DNA of 64,000 nucleotides, from the NCBI GenBank assembly GCA_963842725.1, contig CAWJHN010000004.1, positions 254,098 through 318,097 of the forward strand. Reading direction: 5' to 3'. Both the position numbers and the translations under genes were made by a program. This document shows, piece after piece, positions 1 to 53,988 of the stretch. Below the pieces are notes generated by a model. That model ran no database searches. It had not been told where the DNA came from and saw only the letters and a program-made list of their open reading frames with translations. The stretch's first letter is position 1. Each line of letters opens with the position of its first letter. The DNA is from an uncultured Actinomycetes bacterium (GTDB taxonomy: Bacteria > Actinomycetota > Actinomycetes > S36-B12).

Positions 1-239
1 GCGAGGTAGCGCGGGCGTGACTGGGCGAGTGAGGCGTCCAGCACGTCCGCGGCGAGGTCGAGGTTCGCGATGACATCGCCCGGCAGGTCGGGCAGCGGCT
101 CACGGAGCATGGCGAGCAGGCTCTCCGACGGAACCGTCTCGACGTCGCGGGCGGCGTCGAAGCCCTGCCAGGCACGGGCCACCAGCGCGGCGGCATGCTC
201 CAGGGCTGGTGCGCGCTGGTCGCCGAGGGTGAGCCTCAT
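1..239 (-). CDS. PLP-dependent (group II) amino-acid decarboxylase, N-terminal part; runs off the window
   Basis: Not in the ORF track. ATG at 239 overlaps the reductase stop (ATGA). Reads MRLTLGDQRAPALEHAAALVARAWQGFDAAR...LREPLPDLPGD...VLDASLAQSRPRYLA; the PLP..P and PRY(L/F)A pattern resembles the group II decarboxylase N-terminus. The catalytic Lys is outside the window. Confidence 0.6.
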   Translation of the reverse strand, partial: MRLTLGDQRAPALEHAAALVARAWQGFDAARDVETVPSESLLAMLREPLPDLPGDVIANLDLAADVLDASLAQSRPRYL

Positions 240-1414
240 GCTCGTGACATTAGCTGCTTGCGGTAGGGAGCGAGGTCCGCGGTCCGATCGACGCCCACGA
301 CGCCGACGAGGCCCGAGTCGTCCGTGTACTCGACGATGCAAGGTCCGTCGATGTCGCCGTCGGCGAGACGGACCCGGTCGGCGATTCCCGGCATGCCGAA
401 CGACTGCAGCTTGTGGTGGTACTGGTCGGACCAGAAGGAGGGCATCGCCGAGAACGGAGAGCGGTCGGGCTCGCGTCCGTCGAGGATCGCGGCGAGCGTG
501 CGACCGGCTCGACGCCCCGTCTCGGTGGGCATGTTCCAGTGCTCGATTCGGCGCGGCGGACCGCCGAAGATCGCGTTCGGATGACGGGCGATGTCGCCGA
601 CGGCCACGACGGGTGCCATCGGCGTGGCCACCTGCATGGCGTCATCAACGAGGAGCCCGTCCGAGAGGTCGAGGTCATTGCCCTCGAGCCACTCGGTGTT
701 GGTCACGGACCCCACCGCCTCGATGACGATCGAGGCCGGCAGCTCGGTTCCGTCGCTGAGCGCCACGGCCTGCACGCGCTCGCCGCCCTCGAAGCGATCG
801 ATCGTGTGGCCGAGATGGAAGTGGACGCCGTGCCGCTCATGACGCCGCCGCATCGCGGCGCCGAGCTCGCGGCCGAGCGGCCGGATCATCGGCTCCTCGT
901 CGATGGCCACGATCGCGACACTGCTGCCGAGCATGCGAGCCGTCGCGGCGACCTCGCACCCGATGAACCCGGCGCCCATGATGATCACGTGCGAGCCGGG
1001 GGTCAGGCTCGCCCGCACGGCGTGCGCGTCGGTCGCCGTGCGCAGGACGTGGCGGCCGACCTCGGGTCCGGGGATGGGGAGGCGCCGCGGCCGGATGCCC
1101 GACGCGACCACGAGTCCGTCGAAGGGCAGGACGTGACCATCGGCCAGCGTGACGGTGCGTGCCGCGAGATCGCAGGAGCGGGCGGGCGACCCCAGGCGCC
1201 AGGTGACGTCCTCGACGGTCGCCTTGCGCCGGAACTCCAGTTCGGGCACGTCGATGCCGCCGGACAGCGCCTCCTTCGACAGGGGCGGTCGGTTGTACGG
1301 CAGGTGCTCCTCGTCGCCGACGACCGTGATCGGACCCGGGTACCCGGACGCCCGAAGGGACTCCGCGGTCCGCAGTCCGCCGAGTCCCGCACCGACGATG
1401 ACGACGCCGCTCAT
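236..1414 (-). CDS. NAD(P)H-dependent ferredoxin reductase (FAD, putidaredoxin-reductase-like)
   Basis: GAGLGG and GAGFIG dinucleotide motifs, PYNRPPLSK, FWSDQY; adjacent to a ferredoxin. Confidence 0.92.
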   Translation of the reverse strand: MSGVVIVGAGLGGLRTAESLRASGYPGPITVVGDEEHLPYNRPPLSKEALSGGIDVPELEFRRKATVEDVTWRLGSPARSCDLAARTVTLADGHVLPFDGLVVASGIRPRRLPIPGPEVGRHVLRTATDAHAVRASLTPGSHVIIMGAGFIGCEVAATARMLGSSVAIVAIDEEPMIRPLGRELGAAMRRRHERHGVHFHLGHTIDRFEGGERVQAVALSDGTELPASIVIEAVGSVTNTEWLEGNDLDLSDGLLVDDAMQVATPMAPVVAVGDIARHPNAIFGGPPRRIEHWNMPTETGRRAGRTLAAILDGREPDRSPFSAMPSFWSDQYHHKLQSFGMPGIADRVRLADGDIDGPCIVEYTDDSGLVGVVGVDRTADLAPYRKQLMSRA

Positions 1415-1423
1415 GCCGGGCTC

Positions 1424-1612
1424 CTACTCGACCGTGATGGCCTGCATCGGGCACACGTCGGCTGCGCTCTCGATGTCGGCGCGGCGACTCTCGTCGGCCT
1501 CGGCCACGTACTCGAGCTTGCCGTCGTCGTCCAGCCGGAAGATGTCGTCGGCCTCGAAGCAGCACTGGCCGTAGTGCTGGCACTTCTCCATGTCGACGTG
1601 GACCTTGACCAT
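1424..1612 (-). CDS. 3Fe-4S-type ferredoxin (P450 partner), 62 aa
   Basis: MVKVHVDMEKCQHYGQCC...DVCPMQAITVE; CxxYxxC...CP motif; start chosen at ATG 1612. Confidence 0.92.
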   Translation of the reverse strand: MVKVHVDMEKCQHYGQCCFEADDIFRLDDDGKLEYVAEADESRRADIESAADVCPMQAITVE

Positions 1613-1614: not shown

Positions 1615-2490
1615 CTACTTCTCCTCGATCGTTGATGGGTACAGATCCTTGGATGGGGTCCGGATGCCGCGGAACTCCCAGTCGCCGCCCTGGGCGGTGG
1701 AGATGACCTCCTCGCTCTCCGTCGGCTGGGCGCCGACGTCGGAGCGGATGGGGGTCGGGCCCTCCACGATCGTGTTCGACAGCGTGCCGAGGCCCTCGAC
1801 CTGGACCTCCACGACGTCGCCGGGGTAGACGGTGCGCGAGTTGGCCGGAGTGCCGGAGAACAGCAGGTCTCCCGGCACCAGCGTGATCGTCCGGGCGATG
1901 TCGGCGACGAGGTAGTGCATGTCCCACTCCATCTCGTCCGTGGTGCCGTCCTGCTTCACGACGCCGTTGACGAGCGTGCGGATCTGCTTGCCGCGGAAGT
2001 CCCAGTCGGTGACGAGGCCCGGACCGACCGGCGCGAGGGTGTCGGCGCCCTTGACGCGGAGCATCGACCCCGCGTCGGTGTCGCGGAAGTCGTGCAGTCC
2101 GTAGTCGTTGCCGACGGAGTAGCCGGCGATGTGGTCGGCCGCCTCGTCCGGTGAGATGTTCCGGCAGGTGCGACCGATGACGATGACGATCTCGCCCTCG
2201 TAGTTGAGCCACTTGCAGCGCTGGGGTCGCACGACGGCGCCCTTGTGCGAGTTGAGCGCGGTGATGGGCTTGTGGAAGTACGTGGGCGCAGCGGGCAGCC
2301 TCGTCATGAATTCCTGCGTGCGGGAGTCGTAGTTCAGGTGCACCGCGATGATCTTCGTCGGCTCCGAGGGGGCGAGGTGGATCGCCTCGTCGACACCGAC
2401 GATGCGCCCGTCGGGTGCGACGAGTTCGTCGCCGTGCCGCTGGGTGAGGACGGGGGCACCCTCGAGGAGGATGCGACGGTACTCGGTCAT
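1615..2490 (-). CDS. Fumarylacetoacetate-hydrolase-family isomerase/decarboxylase (HpaG-like)
   Basis: KIIAVHLNY, YEGEI, GYSVGND, KGADT, PGDLLFSGTP motifs; ATG 2490 overlaps the upstream stop. Confidence 0.9.
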   Translation of the reverse strand: MTEYRRILLEGAPVLTQRHGDELVAPDGRIVGVDEAIHLAPSEPTKIIAVHLNYDSRTQEFMTRLPAAPTYFHKPITALNSHKGAVVRPQRCKWLNYEGEIVIVIGRTCRNISPDEAADHIAGYSVGNDYGLHDFRDTDAGSMLRVKGADTLAPVGPGLVTDWDFRGKQIRTLVNGVVKQDGTTDEMEWDMHYLVADIARTITLVPGDLLFSGTPANSRTVYPGDVVEVQVEGLGTLSNTIVEGPTPIRSDVGAQPTESEEVISTAQGGDWEFRGIRTPSKDLYPSTIEEK

Positions 2491-3383
2491 GCGCGCGGCT
2501 CCTTGCGTGTCCAGCCGGTCTCGGGTCGGTCGAACCATACGTGGACCTGGCTGGTGCCGATCGAGTTCTCGTAGTCCCCGAACTGGACGCCGGGCGCTGC
2601 GAACTCCGACTCGCCGAGGGCCGCTGCCATCATCAGGTAGTGCGCGAACCTGCCCTCCGGGCGCACGGTCAGGAAGTCGTCCATCGTGTCGAGGACGCGA
2701 TCGTGGCGACCCTCCGCGAACCACGCCAGGCGCTCCATGTCCATGTCGCGGGCGCGCTGGCTGAAGATGTGCGAGGGGTCGCTCGCCTCGTGACTGCGTA
2801 GCTCGCGAAGGGGATAGAACGTGTGCGACAGCGAGCCGGTGGCGATGATGATCACCTTCCGGTCGATGTCGCGGATCGCGGACCCGATCGCACGTCCGAC
2901 GCGCAGGAAGTCCTCCGAGTCCCCGGTCTGGCAGACGCTCATGGAGATCCACTGCTTGTCGAGCCCCTTGCCCAGGTAGCTCCACAGGTTGATCGAGGGG
3001 TAGTAGAGCGGCAGGTACGGATCATCGAGGGCGGTGATCCAGGTGCCGTTGTCCTCCGCCCGCGCGGCGATCGCCTCGGCCAGCCCGGGATCGCCCCGCC
3101 ACTCGTAGGGGATCCGGCACATTCCCCTGGGCAGTTCCTCCGCCGTGAACAGGCCCGCGCGCAGGTGGTGCGAGGTGACCACGAACTCGACGGTCGTGAA
3201 CCAGTGCGAGTCCAGGACGATGACCGTGTCGTAGTCGAGGGTCTCGAACTTCTCGGCCCTGATCCGCCTCAGCGCCGGGACCAGCGAGATCTCCCTGCCC
3301 TCGTTCAGTTCCAGCCGGGTCTCCAGCGGGAGCATGATCGTCGGCACGTGCGATAGGAGGCCCGCTCCTACGACTTCGCCCAT
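2487..3383 (-). CDS. LigB-family extradiol dioxygenase (homoprotocatechuate 2,3-dioxygenase-like)
   Basis: SHVPTI, DSHW and GSLSH metal-ligand motifs; C-terminal GTSQVHVWF; flanked by hpaE-like and hpaG-like genes. Confidence 0.88.
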   Translation of the reverse strand: MGEVVGAGLLSHVPTIMLPLETRLELNEGREISLVPALRRIRAEKFETLDYDTVIVLDSHWFTTVEFVVTSHHLRAGLFTAEELPRGMCRIPYEWRGDPGLAEAIAARAEDNGTWITALDDPYLPLYYPSINLWSYLGKGLDKQWISMSVCQTGDSEDFLRVGRAIGSAIRDIDRKVIIIATGSLSHTFYPLRELRSHEASDPSHIFSQRARDMDMERLAWFAEGRHDRVLDTMDDFLTVRPEGRFAHYLMMAAALGESEFAAPGVQFGDYENSIGTSQVHVWFDRPETGWTRKEPRA

Positions 3384-3387: not shown

Positions 3388-4854
3388 CTACTCCTTCGTC
3401 CAGCCGTTCGGTGCGTACACGGTGTTCTTGACGTCGGCATAGAAGTCGAAGGACCACACGCCGCCCTCCCGCCCGATCCCGGACCTCTTGGAGCCGCCGA
3501 ACGGGGCCGACAGGTCGCGCACGAAGAAGCAGTTGACCCAGATGGTGCCGGCGACAAGGTGCTTGGTGAAGGCCTCGGCGCGCTCCCGACTGCCGGTGAC
3601 GACACAGGCCGCCAGTCCGAAGTCGGTCCCGTTGGCCAGGGCCAGGCCCTCATCGTCGGTGCCGAAGGTCTGCATGGTCAGCACGGGTCCGAAGACCTCC
3701 TGCGTCAGGATCTCGCTGCCCGGCCTGGCGTCCCGGATCAGCGTGGGCGTGAAGTAGTGCGTGCCGAGTGCGGCATTGCGCTCGCCGCCGTACACGATGG
3801 TCGCCCCCTCGGCCCGGGCGCGCTCGATGAAGCCCTCCACCCGCTCGACGTGACGCAGGTGGATGCTCGGCCCGATCTGGGTCTCCTCCTCGCGCGGATC
3901 CCCCTGCCGGATGCGTGCCGCTCGCTCGACGAACCGGGCTGAGAACTCCTCGGCTATGCCGTCCTGGACCAGTAGTCGCGTCCCGGCCAGGCACACCTGG
4001 CCGGCGTTGTCGTACTGCTCGATGGCCAGGTCGACCGCGAGATCGAGGTCGGCGTCGTCGAGGATCACGGTCGGGCTCTTGCCGCCGAGCTCGAAGGAGC
4101 AGGGGATCAGGTTGTCGGCCGCCGCATGGGCGATGACCTTGGCGGTCGGCACCGACCCGGTGAAGCAGATCCGCGACACGTCGGCGTTCGCGGTGAGGGC
4201 GGCGCCGGCCTCGGTGCCGAATCCCTGGACCACGTTGAAGACGCCGGCCGGCAACCCGGCCTCGTGTGCGAGGTCCGCGAAGTACGACGCCGTCAGCGGA
4301 GCCCACTCCGGCGGCTTCAGCACCACCGTGTCCCCCGAGGCCAGGGCCGGGCCGATCCGCCAGGTCGCCAGCATCAAGGGGGCGTTCCAGGGGGTGATGA
4401 TGACGGCGACCCCGGACGGATCCCAGGACACGTGGTTGGTGTGCCCACGCGTCTCGAAGTCGGGATGGGACAGGCGGTTAGCCGCGTAGTCGGCGAAAAA
4501 GCGGATGTTCATGGCCACTCGGGGCATGACACCGCGCCGGTGCGAGCGAAGCAGCGAGCCGTTGTCGGCGGTCTCGAGCTGCGAGAGCGCCTCGAGGCTG
4601 CCCTCGACGGCGTCGGCAACGCGGTAGAGGATCTCGGCCCGGTCGGTCGCGCTCATCGCGGCCCACGCAGGGAAGGCGGCCCGCGCTGCCGCGACCGCGG
4701 CGTCCGCCTCCGCCTGGCCGCCGCGATGGACCTGGGCGATCTCGGCGCCGTCGATCGGACTGATGCTGGCGAAGGTCGTCGGGGACGAGACTCGCTCGCC
4801 GCCGATCCAGTGCCGGGTGTCCACGGGGACACCGGCGACCTCGACGATCGACAT
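3388..4854 (-). CDS. Aldehyde dehydrogenase (hydroxymuconate-semialdehyde dehydrogenase, HpaE-like)
   Basis: ITPWNAPLML, FTGS, ELGGKSP, AGQVCLAG, EVFGPV, VNCFFVRDLSAPFGGSKRSGIGREGG. Confidence 0.9.
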   Translation of the reverse strand: MSIVEVAGVPVDTRHWIGGERVSSPTTFASISPIDGAEIAQVHRGGQAEADAAVAAARAAFPAWAAMSATDRAEILYRVADAVEGSLEALSQLETADNGSLLRSHRRGVMPRVAMNIRFFADYAANRLSHPDFETRGHTNHVSWDPSGVAVIITPWNAPLMLATWRIGPALASGDTVVLKPPEWAPLTASYFADLAHEAGLPAGVFNVVQGFGTEAGAALTANADVSRICFTGSVPTAKVIAHAAADNLIPCSFELGGKSPTVILDDADLDLAVDLAIEQYDNAGQVCLAGTRLLVQDGIAEEFSARFVERAARIRQGDPREEETQIGPSIHLRHVERVEGFIERARAEGATIVYGGERNAALGTHYFTPTLIRDARPGSEILTQEVFGPVLTMQTFGTDDEGLALANGTDFGLAACVVTGSRERAEAFTKHLVAGTIWVNCFFVRDLSAPFGGSKRSGIGREGGVWSFDFYADVKNTVYAPNGWTKE

Positions 4855-4951
4855 GCGATCCCTTCCCGTCCGGTATACGTCGGCGGCACAATGGGCGAGG
4901 TGCTGCCCACTGTGCCGTGTGGTGTGCGGATTGCGAACCAGAGCCTGCAGT

Positions 4952-4969
4952 TCGTTCGGACCCTAATAG
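4952..4969. promoter_or_regulatory. Palindromic operator copy (TCGTTCGGACCCTAATAG)
   Basis: Matches consensus TCGTTnGGnnCCnAACGA with 3 mismatches; lies between the divergent dehydrogenase and amidotransferase genes. Confidence 0.55.
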
Positions 4970-5018
4970 ATAATGTGCGCCACGTCGACCCCCGCGTCGA
5001 ACCGATTCAGGAGGAGAA

Positions 5019-5714
5019 GTGCCCCGACCCCGTATCGCCGTCCTCGGCCGGTTCACCGAATCGGCCAGCGCGCTCCGGTACCGGGGGCTCGTCTCGTCGC
5101 GCGCCCTGCTCGAGGTCGTGTGGGCCGCCGGCGGCGACCCGGTCACGCTGCTCCCCGGGGCGGATCCGGATGCGCTGGACTGGTCGACCCGCCTGTCCGG
5201 GTTCGGCGGCGTGCTGATGGCAGGAGGCGGCGACGTGGATCCGGCGCGCTACGGCGGCGACCCTGACCACGACACGGTCTATGACGTGGATGCCGTCCAG
5301 GACGAGGCGGACTTCTCCCTGGCTCGCCACTGCCTCGAGCACGCGGTCCCGACCCTTGCCGTCTGCCGAGGGCTGCACGTCGTGAACGTGGTCCGAGGCG
5401 GGACCCTCGTGATCGACATGCCCGAGAACCACCGGCACCTGGTTCAGCAGGTGCCGCTCGACCGGGGTGCCGAGCCCCTCGGCATCGGATTGGAGCCGAT
5501 CGAGATCTCCTGCTACCACCATCAGGCCGTCGACCGGGTCGGAGCGGGCCTGACCGTGGTGGCCCGGGCCGAGGACGGGACGGTCGAGGCGGTCGTCGTG
5601 GACGCGCCCGCCTGGACGGTCGGCGTCCAATGGCACCCGGAGGACACCTACGCCGTCGACCCCCGGCAGGTCGACCTGGTGCGGACGCTCGTCGCGCAGG
5701 CCGCTCGCGCCTGA
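5019..5714 (+). CDS. Gamma-glutamyl-gamma-aminobutyrate hydrolase family (PuuD-like, class I GATase)
   Basis: GGGDVDPARY, AVCRG nucleophile elbow, YHHQAV, QWHPE; RBS AGGAGGAG upstream of the GTG. Confidence 0.9.
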   Translation: MPRPRIAVLGRFTESASALRYRGLVSSRALLEVVWAAGGDPVTLLPGADPDALDWSTRLSGFGGVLMAGGGDVDPARYGGDPDHDTVYDVDAVQDEADFSLARHCLEHAVPTLAVCRGLHVVNVVRGGTLVIDMPENHRHLVQQVPLDRGAEPLGIGLEPIEISCYHHQAVDRVGAGLTVVARAEDGTVEAVVVDAPAWTVGVQWHPEDTYAVDPRQVDLVRTLVAQAARA

Positions 5715-5739
5715 CCGGCCATGACGCGCGCGCCATTCG

Positions 5740-6240
5740 TCAGCGGCGCTCGGAGGCCGTGATGCACATGAGCCGGAGGGCCTCGGCCACGGTGGCCCGG
5801 TCCGCCTTGGGGATGCCCGACACGGCGACCTGCTCCTGCGCGTTGAACTTCGGGAAGAGCCTCTTCATGAGTCTTCGGCCCGCGGGGGTGAGGCTGACCA
5901 GCACCAGTCGGCCGTCGTCCGGGCTGCGCTCGCGGATGAGCAGGTCGCGACCCTCGAGCGTCTTGAGCACGCCGGAGAGCGTTGCCTTCGAGAAGCCACC
6001 CTCCTCCGCGATCACGCGCGTCTCGGCCTGCTCCCATATCCAGGTGACCCACAGGACGACGAACGCGGTCCAGGTGAGGTCGTGCGGCTGCAGGACGGTT
6101 CCCTCGAGGTGGTTGCGCACGGCGTTGGCTGCGCGGAAGAGATTCGAGGCGACCGCCATCGCCTCGAAGTCCAGGTCCATGCCCGAAAGCCGGCTCTCCA
6201 CAGCGCGCTCGGTCTCCGCGAGGGTGTACGGGCCGGCCAT
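5740..6240 (-). CDS. MarR-family transcriptional regulator
   Basis: KATLSGVLKTLEGRDLLIRERSPDDGRLVLVSLTPAG wHTH signature; AAGGAG RBS before ATG 6240. Confidence 0.9.
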   Translation of the reverse strand: MAGPYTLAETERAVESRLSGMDLDFEAMAVASNLFRAANAVRNHLEGTVLQPHDLTWTAFVVLWVTWIWEQAETRVIAEEGGFSKATLSGVLKTLEGRDLLIRERSPDDGRLVLVSLTPAGRRLMKRLFPKFNAQEQVAVSGIPKADRATVAEALRLMCITASERR

Positions 6241-6330
6241 GAGGCTCCTTCGGTGAGGGTGTGCGGACAACCTACGCGAAAGTTCGTCAAAGGTGTTCAA
6301 ATCGCCGACGGGGCATTACAGTCTGCCGGA

Positions 6331-6348
6331 TAGTTCGGGCCCGAATGG
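6331..6348. promoter_or_regulatory. Palindromic operator copy (TAGTTCGGGCCCGAATGG)
   Basis: Consensus match, 8 nt downstream of a TACAGT -10-like hexamer (6317-6322) upstream of the P450. Confidence 0.6.
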
Positions 6349-6382
6349 TTGCGCGGCCCCATCGGACGACCCCGGAGGTTCC

Positions 6383-7628
6383 ATGACCACGACGACCGAC
6401 GTCACTCTCGCCGATCTCGGACCTGTTCGCCAACGGGGCACCCTGGGCGACGTTCGAGGACCTGAGAGCGAACTCCCCGGTCCACTGGAACACCGAGCCC
6501 GAGCCGAATGCGGGCTTCTGGTCCGTGACCCGCTACCACGACATCGTCGAGGTGCTGCGCAACACCACCACGTACTCGAGCCAGATCGGCGCGGTGAGCC
6601 TCGAGGAGCTGGACACGCGCCAGATGGAGATCCGCCGCTCCATGCTGGAGACGGACGGGACCCGCCACCGCGCGCTGCGCAAGATGCTCCAGCCCGAGTT
6701 CACGCCGCGGGCCATCGCCGGCTACGAGACCTTCCTGCGCGGGCTGTCTGCGTCCACTCTCGACGCGGCCCTCGTCAAGGACGAGTTCGACTTCGTGGCG
6801 GACGTGGCCGCCGACTTCCCGATCCGCGTCTTGGCCCGGATGCTGGACGTGCCCGAGTCGGACATCCCGCAGCTGATCAAGTGGGGCAACCGGATGGTCG
6901 GCAACACCGACCCCGAGCACGCCGACGTGCTGGCCGACAGCCCCGAGAGCGAGGCCTTCCGCGACCTGCCGTTCCGGTCGCCGGCCGCGCTGGAGGTCTT
7001 CAAGTACGGCTACGAGCTCGCCTGGAACCGGCGCGGCGGTGACGGCAAGGACCTCGTCTCCATCGTCCTCAACACGCCCCCGTCGGACGGTATCCCGATC
7101 GACGCCCGTGACTTCCGCAACTACTTCCTGCTCCTCGTCATCGCGGGGAACGAGACGACGCGGCACACGATCACGCACACGATGAACAACCTCATGAAGA
7201 ACCCGCAGGCCATCGACCTGCTGCGTGAGAAGCCGGAACTCATCCCCTGGGCCGTCGAGGAGTTCCTGCGGTACGCCAGTCCGATCTACCACTTCCGACG
7301 CACGGCGACCCACGACGTGATGCTCAACAACAAGGAGATCAAGGCGGGCGACAAGGTCGTCGTCTGGTTCGGGTCGGGAAACATGGACACCGACGTCTTC
7401 GATGACCCCTACGCCTTCGACGTGACGCGCAAGCCGAACGAGCACATGACGTTCGGGCGCGGCGGACCGCACATGTGCCTGGGCAACGCCCTGGCCCGCC
7501 TGGAGATCCAGATCATGTTCGAGGAGCTCCTGGCGCGCGACGTCAATCTCGCGCCCAACGGCACGCCCGAGTTCCTGCGCTCGAACCTGGTGCACGGCTT
7601 CAAGCGGCTGCCCGTCAAGAAGGCCTGA
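6383..7628 (+). CDS. Cytochrome P450; apparent +1 frameshift near 6416-6420
   Basis: GGAGG RBS plus ATG 6383 gives MTTTTDVTLADL, then DLFANGAPWATFEDLRANSPVHW...GFWSVTRY continues in the +1 frame; AGNETT I-helix, EEFLR, FGRGGPHMCLG heme-Cys motif. Confidence 0.93.
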
Positions 7629-7656
7629 ACGCGGAGCCATCGCCCCGCGGCGTGAG

Positions 7657-8370
7657 TCAGGCGACGATGGGGAAGGCGATGCGGTCCAGGAAGGCGTCGA
7701 CGAGGGCGTGCGCCCGGCGGCCCGCGTCCTCCCCCTCTGCGAGCGTGTGCTGGTAGAGGATGTCGGGGTCCTGCCCGTCGGCGACGACCAGGTCGCGTCC
7801 GTCGAGCTCGAGCCAGCCCTGCAGCGTGGCTGCCGTGACCTCGGGATGGAACTGCACCGCGAGGTTGCGACGCAGCACGAAGGCCTGCGACGCCCGCGAG
7901 TTGCGCGCGATCTCGCGCGCCTCGGGCGGGACCTCCCAGCGGTCGTAGTGGAAGTGGAACCACGGTCCGCGACCGACGATGTCAGGGGCCTGCGACCAGA
8001 TCGCGGTCCAGCCGATCTCCGGACGCGGTGCGCGCGCGACCGACCCGCCGTGGGCCCGTGCGAGCAGCTGCCCGCCGAAGCAGATCCCGAGCACCGGCAC
8101 GCCGAACTCGTCGGCTCGCCGCAGCCACTCGATCTCGGGCAGCAGCCAGGTGCCGATCTTCTGGTCGTCCCATGCCCCCCACGGCGCGCCCATGGGGACG
8201 ATCACGTCGAACTCGCGCGGATCCGGGAAGTCGAAGGGCTGGTTGGGCTGTCGGAAGTTCTCGGGCGCCACGACGATCCGCTCGACGACCTCGAATCCGC
8301 GATGCGCGAAGCGCTCGGCCACCGGCCCGGGCGGACTCACGTGATCGTGCTGGAGGAACAGTGCCCGCAC
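7657..8370 (-). CDS. Type 1 glutamine amidotransferase (GMP-synthase-like, stand-alone)
   Basis: PVLGICFGGQ nucleophile, PEIGW, AVQFHPE. Confidence 0.88.
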   Translation of the reverse strand: MRALFLQHDHVSPPGPVAERFAHRGFEVVERIVVAPENFRQPNQPFDFPDPREFDVIVPMGAPWGAWDDQKIGTWLLPEIEWLRRADEFGVPVLGICFGGQLLARAHGGSVARAPRPEIGWTAIWSQAPDIVGRGPWFHFHYDRWEVPPEAREIARNSRASQAFVLRRNLAVQFHPEVTAATLQGWLELDGRDLVVADGQDPDILYQHTLAEGEDAGRRAHALVDAFLDRIAFPIVA

Positions 8371-8430
8371 AGCGATTCCCTTCCGTCAAGGGGGCGACAG
8401 ATTGTCGGTTTGCGTCTACTATCCGCTAGA

Positions 8431-8448
8431 TCGTTGGGAGCCTAACGA
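8431..8448. promoter_or_regulatory. Palindromic operator, best copy (TCGTTGGGAGCCTAACGA)
   Basis: Full consensus match, 8 nt downstream of a TACTAT -10 hexamer (8417-8422) upstream of the GS-like gene. Confidence 0.7.
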
Positions 8449-8497
8449 CCCAGCCACGCGAACCTAGCCGTTTGACGCCCACAGCGAAAGGCCATCC

Positions 8498-9847
8498 ATG
8501 CACACCGATCTCGCCGACATCCGTCGTGAGCTGGACACCCTCGGCATCGACGTCCTGCGGCTGGTCTGGTCGGACGTGCTGGGGATCGCCCGGTCAAAGG
8601 ACATCACGGTCTCGCAGCTGGAGCGCGCCGCCGGCCACGGCCCGACCTTCTGCCAGGCCACGTGGACGACGAACACCCGGGGCGATGTGCTCGACGGCCA
8701 CGGCAGCCTGCGTGACGGCCTGTCGGACATGGTGTCGCGGCTCGACCCGAGCACGATCCGCGCCATCCCGTGGGTACCGGGCGTGGCCTACGGGATCGCC
8801 GACATCGATGAGCCCGACGGCTCGCCGAACCCGATCTCGCCGCGCACGTTGCTGCGCCGGGTGATCGCCGAGTACAAGCTGCTGGGGCTCATTCCGATCG
8901 TCGGCCCCGAGCTGGAGTTCTACCTCGCCCACCGGCCGAACGGGTCGTGGGAGCGCATCATCAACAAGGTCGGCCGCGTCTACACGACGGGTTCGATGGT
9001 GGATCCGGACGGCACCTTCCTGCACCTGCTGCGCATGATGGACCGGCTGGCGATCGGTGCCTTCGCGGGAAACCACGAGTTCGCGCCGTCGCAGTACGAG
9101 ATCAACCTGTGGCACGGCGAGGCCCTGGACGCAGCGGATCGCACCTTCCTGCTCAAGGCCGGCATCAAGGACGTCTGCGCGAGCAGGGGCGTCATGGGCA
9201 CCTTCCTCGGCAAGCCCTGGAGCGACGAGGGCGGCAGCGGATTCCATCTGCACCTGTCGGTGACGGACATCGAGGGCGACATGATGATGGACGAGCCCGA
9301 CGGGTCCCCGTCGGTCATCTCCCAGCGCATGACCGCCGGCATCCTGGAGCATGCGGCGGCGCTTGTCGCCTTCTGCAATCCCACGGTCAACGCGTACAAG
9401 CGGCTCGGTCCGGACACGATGGCGCCGTACCGGGCTAACTGGGGCTACGACAACCGCACCACGTTCGTGCGGCTGCCACCGGAGCGAGGTCCCGGGGCGC
9501 GTATCGAGGTCCGGGTCGGGGACGGGGCCGCCAACCCCTACGTGGTCATCGCGGTGGTTCTCGCTGCGGCCCTCGACGGCCTGCGTCGACAGCTCGACTG
9601 CCCGCCCGCGTCCGAGGGCTGGTCGTACACCGACGAGTCGCGCCCGGCGCTGCCGATGTCCCTGGGAGCGGCACTGGATGCGCTCGCGGCCGACCGCTTC
9701 CTGACCGACATCATCGGCGAGCCGTTCGTCGCGGCCTTCGAGACGCTCAAGCGCGACGAGATCGCCCGCTACGAGGCAGCGGTCGACGATCCGGCCACGC
9801 GCGACACCACGCAGTGGGAGCTCGACGAGTACCTCGAGGACTTCTAG
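8498..9847 (+). CDS. Glutamine-synthetase-like gamma-glutamyl-amine ligase
   Basis: GPELEFY, HEFAPSQYEIN, GSGFHLHLS, NAYKRL, WGYDNRT, RIEVR..D.AANPY; the flap reads PDTMAP instead of the GYEAP of ammonia-assimilating GSI. Confidence 0.9.
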   Translation: MHTDLADIRRELDTLGIDVLRLVWSDVLGIARSKDITVSQLERAAGHGPTFCQATWTTNTRGDVLDGHGSLRDGLSDMVSRLDPSTIRAIPWVPGVAYGIADIDEPDGSPNPISPRTLLRRVIAEYKLLGLIPIVGPELEFYLAHRPNGSWERIINKVGRVYTTGSMVDPDGTFLHLLRMMDRLAIGAFAGNHEFAPSQYEINLWHGEALDAADRTFLLKAGIKDVCASRGVMGTFLGKPWSDEGGSGFHLHLSVTDIEGDMMMDEPDGSPSVISQRMTAGILEHAAALVAFCNPTVNAYKRLGPDTMAPYRANWGYDNRTTFVRLPPERGPGARIEVRVGDGAANPYVVIAVVLAAALDGLRRQLDCPPASEGWSYTDESRPALPMSLGAALDALAADRFLTDIIGEPFVAAFETLKRDEIARYEAAVDDPATRDTTQWELDEYLEDF

Positions 9848-9848
9848 C

Positions 9849-9920
9849 GCCGACGCGACCCAGAAGGTCGCGTAATCGGTGGTTCCGCGGCTGTTTCGCG
9901 ACCTTCTGGGTCGCGTCGGC
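9849..9920. repeat. Perfect 24-bp inverted repeat with self-palindromic arms (REP-doublet-like or bidirectional terminator)
   Basis: gccgacgcgacccagaaggtcgcg (9849-9872) and its exact reverse complement (9897-9920), 24-nt spacer, between convergent genes. Confidence 0.85.
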
Positions 9921-9971
9921 GGCGTGGGGTGGGCGGCGGCGTGGGGTGGGCGGCGGCGTGGGGTGGGCGGC
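9921..9971 (+). repeat. G-rich tandem repeat, 3 x 17 bp (ggcgtggggtgggcggc)
   Basis: Three exact contiguous copies. Confidence 0.9.
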
Positions 9972-10006
9972 GGCGCGGAGCGGGCTCGTCAGACGGCGCG
10001 GGCAGG

Positions 10007-10816
10007 TCAGATGGCGCGGGACGCATCGGTGAGCAGCGAGCCCCCCGCGAAGGTCGTGCCCACCTCGACGTAGTACCCCGCGATGACCTCGTCCACGGGC
10101 AGGAGGCTGGCGGGCTCGTCCCATGGCGAGTCGAACAGGGACAGCTCGGCGTCGCCGACCCACGGTTGGCCGAGGTCGACGTCGACCCCGCCCATGGTCA
10201 CGACCTGGGACAGCGACATGCCCGCCCCGGGCGTCAGGGACGGCATGACCCGGTGGTGCACCATCTTGTGGGCGTTGACGAAGCCGTTGGTGTCACTGGG
10301 TTCTCGCAGGGTCACCTTCGCAGTGGCGAGGCGGTGGTCGTAGGCGGCGAGCGACGCCCCGAAGGTGCCGCCCTCCGCGATCCGCGGCGCCGCCGTGCCC
10401 CGGTTGTAGGCACGCGTGACGTACGCGCTGCCGAGCTTCTTCGGGTAGCCCTGGAACCAGCCCCGTCCGATCGCGAAGTCCGTGGTCACCCAGATCAGCA
10501 CGCATCGGCTGTAGGTGACGCCCTGGTACGTGCACCGGACGACGACGAACGCCTCGAGGTACTGCGATCGCGAGGGGTCGAGCAGCTCGGCCCCTCCGCT
10601 GCTGCATGACTGCCAGTCGGCCCAGATGAACGCGACGGCCCCGGGGTCCTGCGGCGCCAGGTCGAGTTCGGGCGGCAGCAGCGCGCGGACGTTCGCCGGG
10701 TCGGTGCGGTACTCGACCGTGAGCAGCGTGCCCGAGTAGTGCCACGGCATCTCCGGCACGAGTGCCGACGCTCCGGACGGCGTGAAGGGCGGTAGGAATC
10801 CGCGGAGTTCTGACAT
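10007..10816 (-). CDS. Acetoacetate-decarboxylase-like superfamily protein, MppR-like aldolase/dehydratase
   Basis: PWHYSG..L.VEYRTDP, FIWADWQSCS.GG.EL.DP.R.QY.E, RGWFQGYPKKLG (Schiff-base Lys); layout matches recalled MppR-type proteins. Confidence 0.85.
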   Translation of the reverse strand: MSELRGFLPPFTPSGASALVPEMPWHYSGTLLTVEYRTDPANVRALLPPELDLAPQDPGAVAFIWADWQSCSSGGAELLDPSRSQYLEAFVVVRCTYQGVTYSRCVLIWVTTDFAIGRGWFQGYPKKLGSAYVTRAYNRGTAAPRIAEGGTFGASLAAYDHRLATAKVTLREPSDTNGFVNAHKMVHHRVMPSLTPGAGMSLSQVVTMGGVDVDLGQPWVGDAELSLFDSPWDEPASLLPVDEVIAGYYVEVGTTFAGGSLLTDASRAI

Positions 10817-10845
10817 AGCGCCGAACCATAGCCCACGGCAATCGA

Positions 10846-10863
10846 TCGTTTGCGCCCGAATGT
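10846..10863. promoter_or_regulatory. Palindromic operator copy (TCGTTTGCGCCCGAATGT)
   Basis: Degenerate consensus match upstream of the MppR-like gene. Confidence 0.5.
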
Positions 10864-10895
10864 CAAGGAAGTTGACGGCAAATCGAGCCAATCGC

Positions 10896-10950
10896 TTGAC
10901 GCGCGCATCTCCATGCATCAGTCTCCTCCCTATCGTTCGGGTCCTTACGA
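10896..10950 (+). promoter_or_regulatory. SigA-type promoter (TTGACG-17-CAGTCT) followed by operator copy TCGTTCGGGTCCTTACGA (10933-10950)
   Basis: Canonical 17-nt spacing; the operator begins 8 nt after the -10 element, as at 6331 and 8431. Confidence 0.65.
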
Positions 10951-10989: not shown

Positions 10990-12518
10990 ATGGCTGGCCT
11001 GCAACCCGCTCCGGAGGAGACACCGGACACCGCGCTCCATCACGGTCGCCTCGGAGTGCTCGGGATCGTCTTCTTCGTCGTCGCGGCTGCGGCCCCCCTG
11101 GTCGGGATGACCGGCGCGGTGCCCGTCGCGATCGTGGTGGGCAACGGGGCCGCTGCCCCGGGTGCCTACCTCGTGGTGGGCCTCGTCCTCCTGCTCTTCA
11201 GCGTCGGCTACGGCGCCATGGGCCGTCATGTCACGAATGCCGGCGCCTTCTTCGCGTACGTGGGCCGCGGCATGGGCATCGCTCCCGGCGTCGGGCTCGG
11301 CCTTCGTCTCCCTGGTCGCCTACCTCGCCATCCAGCTCGCGATCTTCGGCTTCTTCGGCGGGCTCATGGCCGGCCAGATGAATGCCCAGTTCGGCCTCGA
11401 CTGGCCGTGGTACGTCTGGACGCTGCTCTCCTGGGCACTCGTCCTCGTTCTGTCCCTGGCGAGCGTCGACATCGGCGCCAAGGTGCTCGGCGTGCTGATG
11501 GGCCTCGAACTCCTGTCGCTCCTGGTCGTGGGGCTCGCGGTGCTCTTCAGCGGTGGCGGGCCCGAGGGCTTCGACCTCGCTGCCTCGTTCGCCCCGAGCA
11601 ACATCTTCGTGGGCGGCTTCGCCGGATCGGCTGGCATCGCCCTCGCGTTCGCGTTCGCGTCCTACATCGGCTTCGAGGCCACCGCGATCTACGGCGAGGA
11701 GTCGAAGGAGCCGCACAAGACCGTGCCGCGCGCGACGTACGTCGCCGTCATCGTGATCACGGTCCTGTTCGCGCTGACCGCCTGGGCCATCGTCTCGGGA
11801 CTGGGGACGTCGGTCGTCGTCGACCGGGTCGTCGAGCTGACGACGATCGACGGAGTGCCGCTCGCGGACCCGGCGCAGGCACTCTTCGCGGTCGCGACGG
11901 AGTACGTGGGCTCCTGGCTGGCGACCGTCATGAGCTGGCTCGTGATCTCGAGCCTGTTCGCCGGCCTGCTCGCGTTCCAGAATTCGGCTGCGCGCTACTT
12001 CTTCGCCATGGGCCGGGCCGGCGTGCTCCCGGCGAAGCTCGACCACGTGAACAAGTCGGGTGCGCCCGTGTGGGCGTCGGTGACGACGTCGGTGGTCACC
12101 CTCCTGGTCATCGTCATCTTCATCGTCCAGGAGCTCGACCCCATCGTGAACATGTTCTTCTGGTTCAGCGGCATGACGGTCGTGGCGATCGTGTTCGTCG
12201 AGATGCTGGTGTGCGTCTCGGTGATCATCTTCTTCCGGCGCGAGCCGCTCGACCGGCGCCCGTGGAACACGATCATCGCTCCGGCGCTGTCGTTCGTCGC
12301 ACTGCTCATCGGCGAGTTCCTGCTCACGTCCCGGTTCGGCCTGCTCGCCGGCACCGTCGCCGAGGGCGTCGATCCCGACCACCGCCGCGTGGGGCCTGAA
12401 CACCACCGGGTGGATCCTCGTGACGACGCCGTTCGTCATCTTCATCCTCGGCGTCCTCATCGGCTCGGTCCGGCAGAACAAGGAGAACGTCGACGCGGTC
12501 GCCGACCTCGTGACCTGA
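10990..12518 (+). CDS. APC-family amino acid/amine permease; two apparent +1 frameshifts (about 11293-11295 and 12374-12376)
   Basis: LGVLGIVFFVVAAAAPL, NAGAFFAYV, SYIGFEATAIYGEE..P..TVPRATY, RYFFAMGRAGVLP; removing one G and one C restores a single ORF ending ...AVADLVT*. Confidence 0.88.
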
Positions 12519-50298: not shown

Positions 50299-51078
50299 CT
50301 ACAGGGGCGTGACGTACGCGCCGGCGATGCCGCCGTCGACCAGGAAGTTCGACGCCGTGATGAAGGACGAGTCGTCGCTGGCCAGGAAGGCAACGGCGGC
50401 CGCCAGCTCGTCGGCCTCGCCGAATCGACCCATCGGGATGTGCACCAGCCGTCGGGCGGCGCGCTCCGGGTCGCTCGCGAACAGCTCGATGAGCAGCGGC
50501 GTGTTGACCGGTCCGGGGGAGAGGGCGTTCACCCGGACGCCCGACCGGGCGAACTGCACGCCGAGCTCGCGGGTCATCGCGAGCACGCCGCCCTTCGACG
50601 CCGTGTAGGAGATCTGGGATGTGGCCGCGGCCATGGTTGCCACGAAGGACGCCGTGTTGATGATCGAGCCCTTGCCCTGCTCGAGCATGATCGGCAGGAC
50701 CGCCTTGCAGCACAGATAGACCGACGTCAGGTTGACCTCCTGGACCCGGCGCCAGGCCTCGAGGCTCGTCTCGAGGATCGAGTCGTCGTCCGGCGGCGAG
50801 ATGCCGGCGTTGTTGAAGGCGATGTCAACGCTGCCGTAGGTGTCCTTGGCGGCGGCGAACATGGCCGCCACGTCCTCGGGGCTCGTGACGTCGGTGCGCA
50901 CGAACAGCCCGTCGACCTCGTCGGCTGCTGCCTGGCCGGAAGCGGGGTCGAGGTCGCCGATCACGACGATGGCGCCCTCGTCGGCGAACCGCCGGACCGT
51001 GGCCAGGCCGATGCCGCTGGCTCCACCGGTCACCACGGCCACGCGGCCCTCGAGCCGGCGGCACTTGCTGTCACTCAT
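50299..51078 (-). CDS. Short-chain dehydrogenase/reductase
   Basis: TGGASGIG, NNAG, YTASK, PGPVNTP. Confidence 0.92.
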   Translation of the reverse strand: MSDSKCRRLEGRVAVVTGGASGIGLATVRRFADEGAIVVIGDLDPASGQAAADEVDGLFVRTDVTSPEDVAAMFAAAKDTYGSVDIAFNNAGISPPDDDSILETSLEAWRRVQEVNLTSVYLCCKAVLPIMLEQGKGSIINTASFVATMAAATSQISYTASKGGVLAMTRELGVQFARSGVRVNALSPGPVNTPLLIELFASDPERAARRLVHIPMGRFGEADELAAAVAFLASDDSSFITASNFLVDGGIAGAYVTPL

Positions 51079-51140
51079 CTGATGCCTCTCATGTATCTGC
51101 GACGGTGGTCGTGCGTAGTTCCTGGCGGGGGTGCCGGGGG

Positions 51141-52499
51141 TCAGTCGTCGGTGCTGATGAAGACGTTCTTGGTCTCGGTGAAGGCGTCGAGGGCATCGGG
51201 ACCGAGCTCCCGGCCGAGGCCGGAACGCTTGAAGCCGCCGAAGGGCGTCCAGTACCGGACCGACGAATGCGAGTTCACCGACAGGTTGCCGGTCTCGATG
51301 CCGCGCGAGACCCGGATGGCCTTGCCGAGGTCGCGCGTCCAGATCGAGCCGGACAGCCCGTACTCCGAGTCGTTGGCGAGGCGGATCGCGTCGGCCTCGT
51401 CGTCGAAGGGGGTGACGACGACCACGGGACCGAAGATCTCCTCCTGGAAGGTGCGATCGGTCGATGACACCGGGGCGAGGACCGTGGGCGGGAACCAGTA
51501 GCCGGGTCCGTCGGGGCAGTGCCCCCGGAAGGCGACCGGCGCATCGTCGGGCACGAAGCCCGCGACCGTCTCGAGCTGCCCTCGGCTGATGAGGGGGCCC
51601 ATCTCCGAAGTCTCCAGGCGGGGGTCCTCGACGCGGACGCCCTTGACCGCCGTCTCCAGCAGTTCCATGAAGCGGTCATACGCCCGCCGCTCGACGAGGA
51701 TCCGCGATCGGGCGCAGCAGTCCTGGCCGGCGTTGTCGAACACGCCGTACGGAGCGGCCGCGGCCGCCTTCTCGAGGTTCGAGTCGGCGAAGATGACATT
51801 GGCGCTCTTGCCGCCGAGCTCGAGGGTCACGGCCTTCACCTGCCGGGCCGCCCCGGCCATGATGCCCTCGCCGACGGCGGTGCTGCCGGTGAAGACGACC
51901 TTGCGCACGAGCGGGTGGTCCACGAACCGCTGGCCAACGACCGAGCCCTTGCCGGGCAGGACGGTGAACACGTCTGGCGGGATGCCGGCCTCGAGGGCCA
52001 GCTCGCCGAGCCGGATCGCGGTCAGCGGCGTGACCTCTGCGGGCTTGAGCACCACGGTGCAGCCGGCCGCGAGCGCCGGGGCGAATCCCCAGCCGGCGAT
52101 CGGCATCGGGAAGTTCCACGGGACGATGACGCCGACGACGCCGACCGGCTCCTTGAAGGTGATGTCGATGCCGCCGGCCACCGGGATCTGCCGGCCGAAG
52201 AGCCGCTCGGGCGACCCGGAGTAGTAGGCCAGGACGTTGGCGACGTTGTTCGCCTCCCAGCGTCCGTTGCCGATCGTGTGACCGGAGTTAGCGACCTCGA
52301 GCTGGGCCAGCTCCTCGACGTGATCGCGAACGAGGTCCGAGAAGGCCCTCAGCAGGTTCGCCCGGTCCCCGGGCGCGACGTCACGCCAGGCTGGGAACGC
52401 GGCGTGCGCCCTCGCGATCGCCTCGTCGGTCTCCTCGGCGGAGGTGGACGGGACGGTGGCGATGACCTGCTCGGTCGCCGGATTGATGACGTCGTGCAT
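51141..52499 (-). CDS. Aldehyde dehydrogenase (AldC/PuuC-like)
   Basis: IVPWNFP, FTGST, ELGGKS, AGQDCCAR, EEIFGP. Confidence 0.92.
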   Translation of the reverse strand: MHDVINPATEQVIATVPSTSAEETDEAIARAHAAFPAWRDVAPGDRANLLRAFSDLVRDHVEELAQLEVANSGHTIGNGRWEANNVANVLAYYSGSPERLFGRQIPVAGGIDITFKEPVGVVGVIVPWNFPMPIAGWGFAPALAAGCTVVLKPAEVTPLTAIRLGELALEAGIPPDVFTVLPGKGSVVGQRFVDHPLVRKVVFTGSTAVGEGIMAGAARQVKAVTLELGGKSANVIFADSNLEKAAAAAPYGVFDNAGQDCCARSRILVERRAYDRFMELLETAVKGVRVEDPRLETSEMGPLISRGQLETVAGFVPDDAPVAFRGHCPDGPGYWFPPTVLAPVSSTDRTFQEEIFGPVVVVTPFDDEADAIRLANDSEYGLSGSIWTRDLGKAIRVSRGIETGNLSVNSHSSVRYWTPFGGFKRSGLGRELGPDALDAFTETKNVFISTDD

Positions 52500-52565
52500 G
52501 GCTGCTCCTGAGCGGTGGGCGCGATGTCCCTGCTGGTGGTGAGAGGTGGCGGGATGCCGGGACCA

Positions 52566-53930
52566 TTAAAGCCGTTCGAAGCTGCGGTATCGCTCCCAGT
52601 CGGTCACCGCGCTGGTGAAGGCGGCCAGCTCCACCCGGGCCATGTTCGCGTAGTGCTCCTGGACCTCGCTGCCGAAGGTCTCCCGGATCCAGTCGGACCC
52701 CTCCCACAGCCGGAGCGCCTCGGACATCGTGTGCGGGACGCGGGTGGAGTCCGTCGCGTACGCATTCCCCTGGAATGCGGGCTCGAGGTCGAGACTCCGC
52801 TCGATCCCGTCGAGTCCGGCGGCGACCATCCCGGCCACGGCCAGGTACGGGTTGACGTCTCCTCCGGGGATGCGGTTCTCGAGGCGAAGTGCACCGCCGT
52901 GACCGACGAGCCGGAACGCGCAGGTGCGGTTGTCGCGACCCCAGCGGATGGCGGTGGGCGCGAACGAGCCGGGCACGTAGCGCTTGTAGGAGTTGATCTG
53001 GGGGGCGAACAGCAGCGTCAGCTCGTTGGAGTGGGCCAGCTGGCCGGCCACGAAGGCCTTGCCCAGGGCGGACATGCCGTTGTCGCCGTCGTCGTCCGCC
53101 ATCACCATCGACCCGTCCGTGCCGCGGAACGAGAGGTGGATGTGGCAGGAGTTGCCTTCGCGCTCGTTGAACTTCGCCATGAAGGTGAGGGCGTAGCCCT
53201 CCTGGGACGCGATCTCCTTGGCCCCGGTCTTGTACGTGACGTGGTTGTCGCAGGTGCTCAGCGCCTCGAGGTAGCGGAAGGCGATCTCGTGCTGGCCGAG
53301 GTTGCACTCGCCCTTGGCGCTCTCGACGATCATGCCCGCCCCGTACATCTCGTTGCGGATACGGCGCAGCAGCGGCTCCACGCGGGCACCGCCGAGCATC
53401 GAGTAGTCGACGTTGTACAGGTTCGCCGGGGTCAGGTCGCGGTAGCCCGCCAGCCACGCCTCCTCGTAGGTGTCCTGGAAGACGATGAACTCGAGCTCGG
53501 TGCCCACGTACGCCTTCATGCCGGCGTCGGAGAGGCGGGTCAGCTGGCGCTTGAGGATCTGCCGGGGCGAGGCGACCACGTCGGAGCCGTCCTCCCACAG
53601 CACGTCGCACAGGACGCCCACCGCGCCCGGCTGCCACGGGATGCGATGCAGGGTCGTCAGGTCCGGCATCATGACCATGTCGCCGTAGCCGCTGTCCCAT
53701 GACGACATCGCGTATCCGTCGACCGTGTTCATGTCGACGTCGACGGCCAGCAGGTAGTTGCAGCCCTCCGTCGCGTGCGCGAGCACCTCGTCGACGAAGT
53801 ACTGCGCGTGGATCCGCTTCCCCGCGAGCCGGCCCTGCATGTCGGTGATCGAGACCGCCACGGTGTCTATGCGCCCGTCCGCCACCTCCTGACGAAGTGC
53901 GTCGACGGTGATCGGTTCCGGCCTGGCCAT
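52566..53930 (-). CDS. glnA4: GS-like gamma-glutamyl-amine ligase (GlnA4 type)
   Basis: DMQGRL.GKR, EGCNYLLAVDVDMNTVDGY.MSSW..GYGD, KGECNLGQHEI, GNSCHIH, PGSFAPT; next to an aldehyde dehydrogenase, SDR and PuuD-like gene as in actinobacterial glnA4 loci. Confidence 0.88.
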   Translation of the reverse strand: MARPEPITVDALRQEVADGRIDTVAVSITDMQGRLAGKRIHAQYFVDEVLAHATEGCNYLLAVDVDMNTVDGYAMSSWDSGYGDMVMMPDLTTLHRIPWQPGAVGVLCDVLWEDGSDVVASPRQILKRQLTRLSDAGMKAYVGTELEFIVFQDTYEEAWLAGYRDLTPANLYNVDYSMLGGARVEPLLRRIRNEMYGAGMIVESAKGECNLGQHEIAFRYLEALSTCDNHVTYKTGAKEIASQEGYALTFMAKFNEREGNSCHIHLSFRGTDGSMVMADDDGDNGMSALGKAFVAGQLAHSNELTLLFAPQINSYKRYVPGSFAPTAIRWGRDNRTCAFRLVGHGGALRLENRIPGGDVNPYLAVAGMVAAGLDGIERSLDLEPAFQGNAYATDSTRVPHTMSEALRLWEGSDWIRETFGSEVQEHYANMARVELAAFTSAVTDWERYRSFERL

Positions 53931-53988
53931 CTGGTCTCCTCTGCGTGGGCTATCGGGCATTCAACCCCACAACCGTCCGCGCCGTGGT

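Follow-up and report, generated by a model that had tools for sequence, protein, structure and literature searches.

In Streptomyces coelicolor, the protocatechuate (pca) operon is repressed by PcaV, a MarR-family protein whose binding to DNA has been shown; the available part of that account describes two inverted repeats of about 20 bp, one just 3' of the operon start and one about 20 bp before the start codon of the regulator, which were found by Gibbs sampling and are conserved across species, with the pathway substrate releasing PcaV (PMC3616709). HpaR is likewise a MarR-family repressor, acting on the homoprotocatechuate (hpa-meta) operon of Escherichia coli W and Yersinia pseudotuberculosis, and the portion of its description available to us gives its site as TTAA-N4-TTAA within a 15-bp region (PMC7180172). 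Here, we describe an 18-bp palindrome that recurs in the promoter regions of a catabolic gene cluster of an uncultured Actinomycetes bacterium (assembly GCA_963842725.1, contig CAWJHN010000004.1). The cluster lies in a stretch of 64,000 nucleotides, which we call the window, with a G+C content of 70% and forming part of a 2.84-Mb genome in four contigs (labelled G000). The palindromes are conserved in promoter regions, and we propose that they are most likely the operators of a dimer of the MarR-family protein encoded in the cluster, and that the gene set would be kept off until a compound of the pathway releases this protein.

The arrangement resembles that of PcaV, as far as the available part of its account goes, in that an actinobacterial marR-type gene stands divergent from aromatic-catabolic genes with inverted repeats in the shared gap. 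Among 97 loci, 84 have at least one site (score of at least 12) within 250 bp of marR; in 30 of the 97 there are two or more such sites, and in 26 a site lies no farther than 45 nt from marR, a position like that of the regulator-proximal operator of PcaV. The two systems differ in half-site (TCAG-N4-CTGA for PcaV, TCGTTCGG-N2-CCGAACGA in this cluster), in reach (PcaV serves one promoter region, the cluster MarR is predicted to serve four to six), in the marR-proximal operator, which has decayed in the window, and in that the cluster operator is known from sequence alone. The proteins themselves are only distantly related (profile E 1.3e-10 to the PcaV structure 4FHT). With HpaR, again judging from the available portion of its description, the cluster shares MarR-type control of HpaD/HpaE/HpaG-type ring-cleavage genes and the use of palindromic sites, of which HpaR has two per control region and one over a -10; unlike the HpaR regulon as described there, the cluster adds glutamylation and P450 genes.

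Six sites were found in the window (Table 1). Five of these had been noted in a preliminary description of this DNA, and each lies where that description put it, beginning at 4952, 6331, 8431, 10846 and 10933. It was also correct that the sites cover all four divergent intergenic regions of the cluster, including the one at 10846: alignment with relatives places the start of the acetoacetate-decarboxylase-family (ADC) gene at 10816 and not at 10918, so this site is intergenic. The pattern offered for the five, TCGTTNGGNNCCNAACGA, held only in part, being exact at 8431-8448 while the other four sites deviate from it, that at 10933 at one position and those at 4952, 6331 and 10846 at three each. 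The true consensus is stricter and more symmetric: over 245 non-redundant sites of related clusters it is a perfect palindrome, TCGTTCGG-NN-CCGAACGA, in which T4, T5, G7 and their mirror positions are nearly invariant. We take its half-site and spacing to be unlike those of the actinobacterial LexA (TCGAAC-N4-GTTCGA), GlnR (GTnAC-N6-GnAAC), DasR and AmtR boxes. As for extent, 4952..10950 does contain the five sites, but the regulon goes past 10950, to a sixth site at 53989-54006 that had been missed.

The pattern count alone is weak, and the signal is carried by the placement of the sites. With up to three mismatches allowed, TCGTTNGGNNCCNAACGA matches the window seven times (the five sites, 11445 and 53989) against 3.35 matches expected from shuffles, and 3 of 100 shuffles reach seven. 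A symmetrised matrix, built without the window from the 245 sites of the other genomes, places the six known sites as the six best of some 64,000 window positions, with scores of 17.8-23.0 against 8.4 for the next, and all six fall between divergently transcribed genes, in five divergent intergenic regions of the window. A Gibbs sampler that was given the four intergenic regions of the cluster alone also recovered the sites of the cluster, with the register off by 0-4 nt, in no fewer than 19 of its 30 runs. When the matrix is trained on the five sites instead, these score 23.2-26.5, and a single other position of the genome (C4:650248) scores that high.

The sites are conserved along with the cluster. 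Of 24 other genomes of the genus, 21 carry a MarR orthologue (62-83% identity). Among 20 loci at least three gene orders of the cluster are found, with matrix hits in the inter-gene gaps of all 20, and cluster and motif are both retained in three genomes from other families of the order (MarR identity of 54-58%). Scanning one genome per species gave at least 579 MarR relatives, and the best 80 loci were used; these come from metagenome-assembled genomes and isolates labelled Nanopelagicales, Actinomycetes, Rhodoluna, Lacisediminihabitans, Salinibacterium, Rhodoglobus and others. In their 726,640 bases, the palindrome has 180 matches at up to three mismatches versus 5 for the reversed pattern. 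An upstream test then covered 99 non-identical loci, using a matrix from the five sites of the window only, a score of at least 14 and the 250 bp upstream of each gene; as the matrix was trained on the window alone, the test is independent of the relatives. The core genes (those for the aldehyde dehydrogenase, the hydrolase, MarR, the P450, the amidotransferase and the ligase) have an upstream site in 81-99% of loci (Table 1). The lower count for the ADC gene arises because this gene stands behind the FAH-family gene in an operon in some gene orders. The count for the permease (0 of 26) is an artefact, because the query began some 300 nt into the gene and out of frame, and in relatives sites lie 310-506 nt before the query match. 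The preliminary description had proposed looking for the motif in orthologous clusters and for its frequency elsewhere: the sites are kept at the same promoters in the 99 loci and in other families of the order, and in the complete genome G020 all four matches lie within the cluster.

The sites also persist when the gene order of the cluster is rearranged. In G017, the pair formed by the ADC and permease genes is displaced by about 30 kb from the cluster and retains both its sites, and where marR has come to stand behind the amidotransferase gene GATb on the same strand (L024, L025, L029, L031), a site lies 13-16 nt before marR. Pattern matches at up to two mismatches were further counted in 41 genomes, with the reversed pattern as control, which gave 0-2 matches in all 41. 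The 27 genomes with a MarR match have 2-10 pattern matches each, the lowest being G031 with two, whose MarR homologue (36% identity) is not accompanied by the cluster; in G009, four of eight matches are in the cluster. Among the 14 genomes without a MarR match, 12 have 0-1 pattern matches. One exception, G022, has seven matches and no MarR match even at E 1e-6; its cluster is on short contigs, two contig ends fall exactly at the expected P450 N-terminus and marR, and an assembly gap thus lies where marR belongs. That the modules of the cluster form one regulon, as had been suggested, is therefore supported by the conservation of the sites, by their moving with the modules and by their rarity elsewhere.

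The position of the sites relative to the promoters points in the same direction. Three sites had been said to begin 8 nt after a -10-like hexamer, and these read as claimed and are conserved in relatives: the P450 site follows TACAGT/TAGAGT (TACAGT at 6317-6322 in the window; nine aligned loci), the ligase site follows TACTAT/TAGTAT, or TAnTAT (TACTAT at 8417-8422; 15 aligned loci), and the permease site follows TTGAC-17-CAnnnT (16 aligned rows), for which the window has a -35 TTGACG at 10896-10901, a 17-nt spacer and a weak -10 CAGTCT at 10919-10924. Being 8 nt after conserved -10 elements, these three sites are inferred to cover the predicted transcription start. Site 1 abuts, from the upstream side, a conserved GATAAT/GATATT -10-like hexamer of the hydrolase promoter, where it would occupy the spacer and the -35 region. 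In three relatives (L026, L030, L040) a second site lies 17-18 nt before the marR start, over a conserved TAGGTT on the marR strand. Positions 6253-6275 of the window are a remnant of this marR-proximal operator; the window, L021 and L022 keep the -10 and have lost the palindrome, so that autoregulation may be weaker in the lineage of the window. Separately, 6 of 16 aligned loci (the window, L023, L026, L028 in part, L030 and L040) share an inverted repeat, GGCACAATGGGC...GCCCACTGTGCC, in the leader of the aldehyde dehydrogenase gene (4885-4916 in the window); this repeat is a second control element or else an RNA hairpin.

The candidate repressor is a protein of 166 aa that scores above the Pfam cut-offs for the MarR family (PF01047, 42.7 bits versus 24.6; PF12802, 34.2 versus 27). 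A profile of 15 orthologues, down to 47% identity, matches 66 solved MarR-family chains at E up to 1e-5, the nearest being 6PCP, MgrA, OhrR, HpaR (7EL2) and PcaV (4FHT) at E 1e-13 to 1e-10. Across the same orthologues, a helix S-K-A/G-T-L/V-S/T-G-V (SKATLSGV in the window) and a wing D-x-R-x-V (DDGRxV) are invariant or nearly so. By analogy with solved MarR proteins we take these to be the recognition helix and the wing, and the near-invariance of such DNA-reading elements fits the conserved half-site. No conserved cysteine is present among the invariant or near-invariant columns of the 15 orthologues, which argues for a ligand sensor rather than an oxidation sensor; an OhrR/MgrA-type sensor was rejected on this ground, with the OhrR model at 45.1 bits versus a cut-off of 200. 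Identity with HpaR was rejected as well, the TIGR02337 model giving 41.5 bits versus a trusted cut-off of 121.2 and the operator differing from TTAA-N4-TTAA. By Pfam, marR is the sole DNA-binding gene of the 13 cluster genes, and it accompanies the cluster in every architecture; its product is therefore the likely repressor, and a regulon under the MarR of the cluster is the best reading of the sites. In such a regulon, the MarR dimer would bind the 18-bp palindromes and repress by blocking RNA polymerase at -10/+1, with a single site between back-to-back promoters serving both directions. The inducer would be the substrate of the pathway or one of its intermediates, which would release MarR from the DNA.

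How might the palindromes otherwise be explained? A chance similarity, or a dispersed repeat of the REP or MITE kind, with no regulatory role could account for a count as modest as seven matches against 3.35, yet such an origin has a virtually negligible probability, as the top six matches all lie in divergent intergenic regions, positions are kept in the 99 loci versus 3 of 613 coding controls, and strong matches number only about ten in 2.84 Mb; it was rejected, as far as a computation can decide, on the ranking by the window-free matrix and on the upstream test. A hairpin in RNA or DNA, acting as a 5'-end stabiliser or an attenuator rather than as a protein site, might be suspected from the self-complementary sequence and from the location of three sites at the extreme 5' end of predicted transcripts. 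We consider this very improbable, and it was rejected on the pairing counts from 384 non-redundant sites (up to four mismatches), whose eight symmetric pairs make 3,072 cells. The consensus pair is present in 2,101 of these; among the 971 departures, 627 are one-sided and 57 two-sided breaks (684 breaking in all), 213 are one-sided G-U and only 74 are compensatory. It is thus base identity rather than pairing that is conserved, and this across G+C contents of 47-71%, which fits a protein operator. In addition, a 2-nt centre is too short to form a loop unless the stem opens, and site 1, being upstream of its -10, would not be transcribed rightward.

Which protein binds the sites, and how it acts there, is a closer question, and several observations weigh against simple repression by the MarR of the cluster. 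MarR and the cluster always co-occur, so that what the comparisons show is a link of the motif with the cluster rather than with MarR in particular; G035 has three pattern matches and no MarR match; 13 of the 97 loci lack any site of score 12 or above within 250 bp of marR; and four strong matches elsewhere in the genome (at a cytochrome gene, a dehydrogenase gene, a hydrolase gene and an unassigned open reading frame) make a wider regulator possible. In the window, no site overlaps the predicted -10 of marR (TAGGTT, 6267-6272, minus strand), the only site in the gap between marR and the P450 gene lying 90 nt away from the marR ATG. When 4800-11100 was scanned for strict sigma-70 and terminator consensus sequences, no promoter and no terminator was found; such scans are uninformative for an actinobacterium of 70% G+C, and the -10/-35 assignments come from conservation only. 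The strong matches outside the cluster (27.1 at C4:650248, 23.9 at both C3:488431 and C4:1822360), together with G035 and the inseparability of the two links, would suit operators of a regulator encoded elsewhere, for instance a nitrogen- or carbon-responsive one, with the cluster MarR binding something else. A general regulator should, however, keep its targets where the cluster is missing, whereas matches drop to 0-1 in 12 of the 14 genomes without the cluster and are confined to it in G020. Moreover, the site tracks marR when marR moves behind GATb, and no second conserved regulator gene is found in the cluster, a TetR gene occurring in one insertion only (L022); an outside regulator is on balance unlikely. 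It is also quite unlikely that MarR binds without being a simple repressor everywhere, activating or acting with a second factor at some promoters or outlying sites. Such a mixed role would agree with site 1 lying upstream of a -10 and abutting it rather than covering +1, with single sites being shared by two back-to-back promoters, and with HpaR, which was reported to act as an activator at one target, through a distal site (PMC7180172). On the other hand, three of the five sites take the classic repressor position 8 nt after a conserved -10.

Genes of the cluster were called with Pfam, NCBIfam and inspection of open reading frames, and we count five transcription units (Table 1). The leftward operon comprises, in order, the genes for the aldehyde dehydrogenase, the LigB-type dioxygenase, the FAH-family enzyme, the ferredoxin and its reductase. 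Two genes, those for the LigB-type dioxygenase and the ferredoxin, had been concealed by spurious long open reading frames in neighbouring frames, and with them the cluster reads as one for aromatic amines, with cleavage of the ring, where it had read as one for amines. At the level of domains, the cluster has the components of a gamma-glutamyl-amine cluster (Gln-synt_C, Peptidase_C26/GATase, p450 and Aldedh); no equivalog model reaches its cut-off (GGputSyn, for instance, scores 228.8 versus 650), and no specific pathway is therefore assigned. Judged from its genes, the cluster probably degrades an aromatic amine. The permease would take up this amine, the glutamine-synthetase-like ligase would cap its amino group with glutamate, hydroxylation would fall to the P450 with the ferredoxin and its reductase, and the two amidotransferase-like hydrolases would take the cap off again. 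Opening of the ring and the processing after it would be the task of the LigB dioxygenase, the HpaE-like dehydrogenase and the HpaG-like and MppR-like enzymes.

Table 1. Operator sites and genes of the window, with scores from the window-free matrix and, for each gene, the number of loci in which the upstream test found a site.
Feature	Coordinates	Strand	Sequence	Score	Loci with upstream site	Remarks
Site 1	4952..4969		TCGTTCGGACCCTAATAG	20.3		between ALDH (-) and C26-type hydrolase (+)
Site 2	6331..6348		TAGTTCGGGCCCGAATGG	19.6		between marR (-) and P450 (+)
Site 3	8431..8448		TCGTTGGGAGCCTAACGA	22.7		between GATase-like gene (-) and GS-like ligase (+)
Site 4	10846..10863		TCGTTTGCGCCCGAATGT	17.8		30 nt 5' of ADC-like start 10816 (-)
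Site 5	10933..10950		TCGTTCGGGTCCTTACGA	23.0		5' of permease (+)
Site 6	53989..54006		CCGTTCGGGGCCAAACGG	18.0		between second GS-like ligase (-) and second amino-acid permease (+)
Ferredoxin-NAD(+) reductase (FdR)	236..1414	-			3/42	inside operon, without own operator
Ferredoxin, small, single-cluster	1424..1612	-				62 aa; PF13459 E 1.3e-11
FAH-family enzyme, HpaG-like isomerase/decarboxylase	1615..2490	-			0/36	inside operon; true start 2490
LigB-type extradiol ring-cleavage dioxygenase, HpaD-like	2487..3383	-				PF02900 E 1.7e-21; TIGR02298 125 bits, cut-off 316
Aldehyde dehydrogenase (ALDH), HpaE-like	3388..4854	-			78/79	first gene of leftward operon
Peptidase C26 / PuuD-like gamma-glutamyl hydrolase (C26a)	5019..5714	+			53/56
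marR, predicted repressor	5740..6240	-			79/97	Pfam MarR
Cytochrome P450	6383..7628	+			88/94	one extra G near 6419 breaks frame
Class-I glutamine-amidotransferase-like protein (GATb)	7657..8370	-			67/73
Glutamine-synthetase (GS)-like ligase, predicted gamma-glutamyl-amine synthetase	8498..9847	+			69/70
Acetoacetate-decarboxylase-family (ADC, MppR-like) enzyme	10007..10816	-			28/45
Amino-acid/amine permease	10990..12518	+				single-base frame breaks near 11292 and 12377
Second module	50299..55912
SDR, second module	50299..51078	-
ALDH, second module	51141..52499	-
GS-like ligase, second module	52566..53930	-				flanks site 6
Permease, second module	54101..55912	+				flanks site 6
Coding controls					3/613

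The Ipu isopropylamine and Puu putrescine pathways are gamma-glutamylation routes for amines, and aniline clusters carry LysR-type regulators, in place of which the present cluster has a MarR-type one. The cluster also has ring cleavage by a LigB-type enzyme, unlike the aniline and other gamma-glutamylation routes, and is known from its genes alone. For the aromatic amines aniline and 1-naphthylamine, gamma-glutamylation clusters have been described (PMC11335346), and the available part of that work allows some further comparison. Like such clusters, ours contains a glutamine-synthetase-like ligase, amidotransferase- and PuuD-like hydrolases, an oxygenase, an aldehyde dehydrogenase and a permease, and as in the aniline route a ring-cleavage branch follows; unlike that route, it has a P450 with ferredoxin and reductase in place of a Rieske dioxygenase.

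Three single-base frame breaks affect the P450 and permease genes. The extra base near 6419 is absent from 8 of 8 relatives, and the permease has two extra bases (11292, 12377) compared with its relatives. Contigs from the public runs X1-X4 cover the stretch thinly, at a depth of about 0-5; those from X3 and X4 (at least 95-99% alike; depth about 3, one contig per run) have one base fewer at 6419, 11292 and 12377. Assembly errors or a difference between strains are the probable cause of the breaks, and not decay of the regulon. None of the listed differences from X3 and X4, to which 41 more are to be added, falls in the five sites. Elsewhere among the relatives, a second gene order (L034:8825-10826, L024:5953-6930) has another P450 (about 52% identical), behind which stands a phthalate-dioxygenase-reductase-type reductase, and in some loci a VanA-like Rieske protein comes next, inserted between the P450 and marR.

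Beyond the main cluster, the motif has a patchy distribution. The counterpart of site 6 lies 58-60 nt 5' of the second ligase gene in 3 of the 26 genomes with an orthologue of this ligase (G000, G007, G012), and no operator site was found upstream of it in the other 23. On this distribution, we regard the second ligase/permease module as a lineage-specific recruitment and not as a core member of the regulon. At L152 and L153 (in G038 and G026), the MarR-type site is missing and a palindrome, TCGGTCTAGACC..., which we take to be reminiscent of GntR/DasR-type sites, lies 81-97 nt before the second ligase gene; the module is therefore probably under another regulator there. The best match of the whole genome (G000:C4:650248-650265, or L127:3749-3766) stands about 110 nt before a multihaem cytochrome c gene, whose open reading frame is apparently split over two frames (L127 3838-4752 and 4661-5446). 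This gene was found in only 1 of 40 relatives, G007, where one of the two copies has an upstream site (score 20.8), found at L159:1434-1451. Another strong match (G000:C3:488431-488448, L128) falls within codons 1-20 of a Glu/Leu/Phe/Val dehydrogenase gene, and further ones are 3' of an alpha/beta hydrolase gene and inside an open reading frame without a family.

In light of these comparisons, what does the palindrome contribute? The switch is ordinary in kind, like those of PcaV and HpaR, and adds nothing mechanistic to what is known of MarR repressors. The aromatic-amine pathway that it controls is apparently undescribed, no description of the cluster, its regulator or the motif having been found in the literature, in a search with subscription journals outside its coverage. 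It is possible, although we would not yet lean that way, that one ligand-sensing MarR runs an undescribed aromatic-amine route combining a glutamate cap, a P450 and a LigB enzyme, with a regulon that grows by lineage and here takes in an alkylamine-type module and the cytochrome locus. The hosts would then be actinobacteria that abound in lakes and sediments (labelled Nanopelagicales, Rhodoluna and other Microbacteriaceae), and the natural substrate would be revealed by the compound releasing MarR.

Thus, as predicted from the sites, the operator would join twelve catabolic and transport genes in the five transcription units, along with the regulator gene, into one control unit, and as a shared operator it defines the full gene set of the pathway. 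The matrix is ready for calling the regulon in metagenomes. Culturable strains, among them Lacisediminihabitans profunda CHu50b-6-2, Rhodoglobus aureus JCM 12762 and Salinibacterium sp., retain the pair of site and regulator, and this pair therefore offers a cheap route to the substrate of the pathway.

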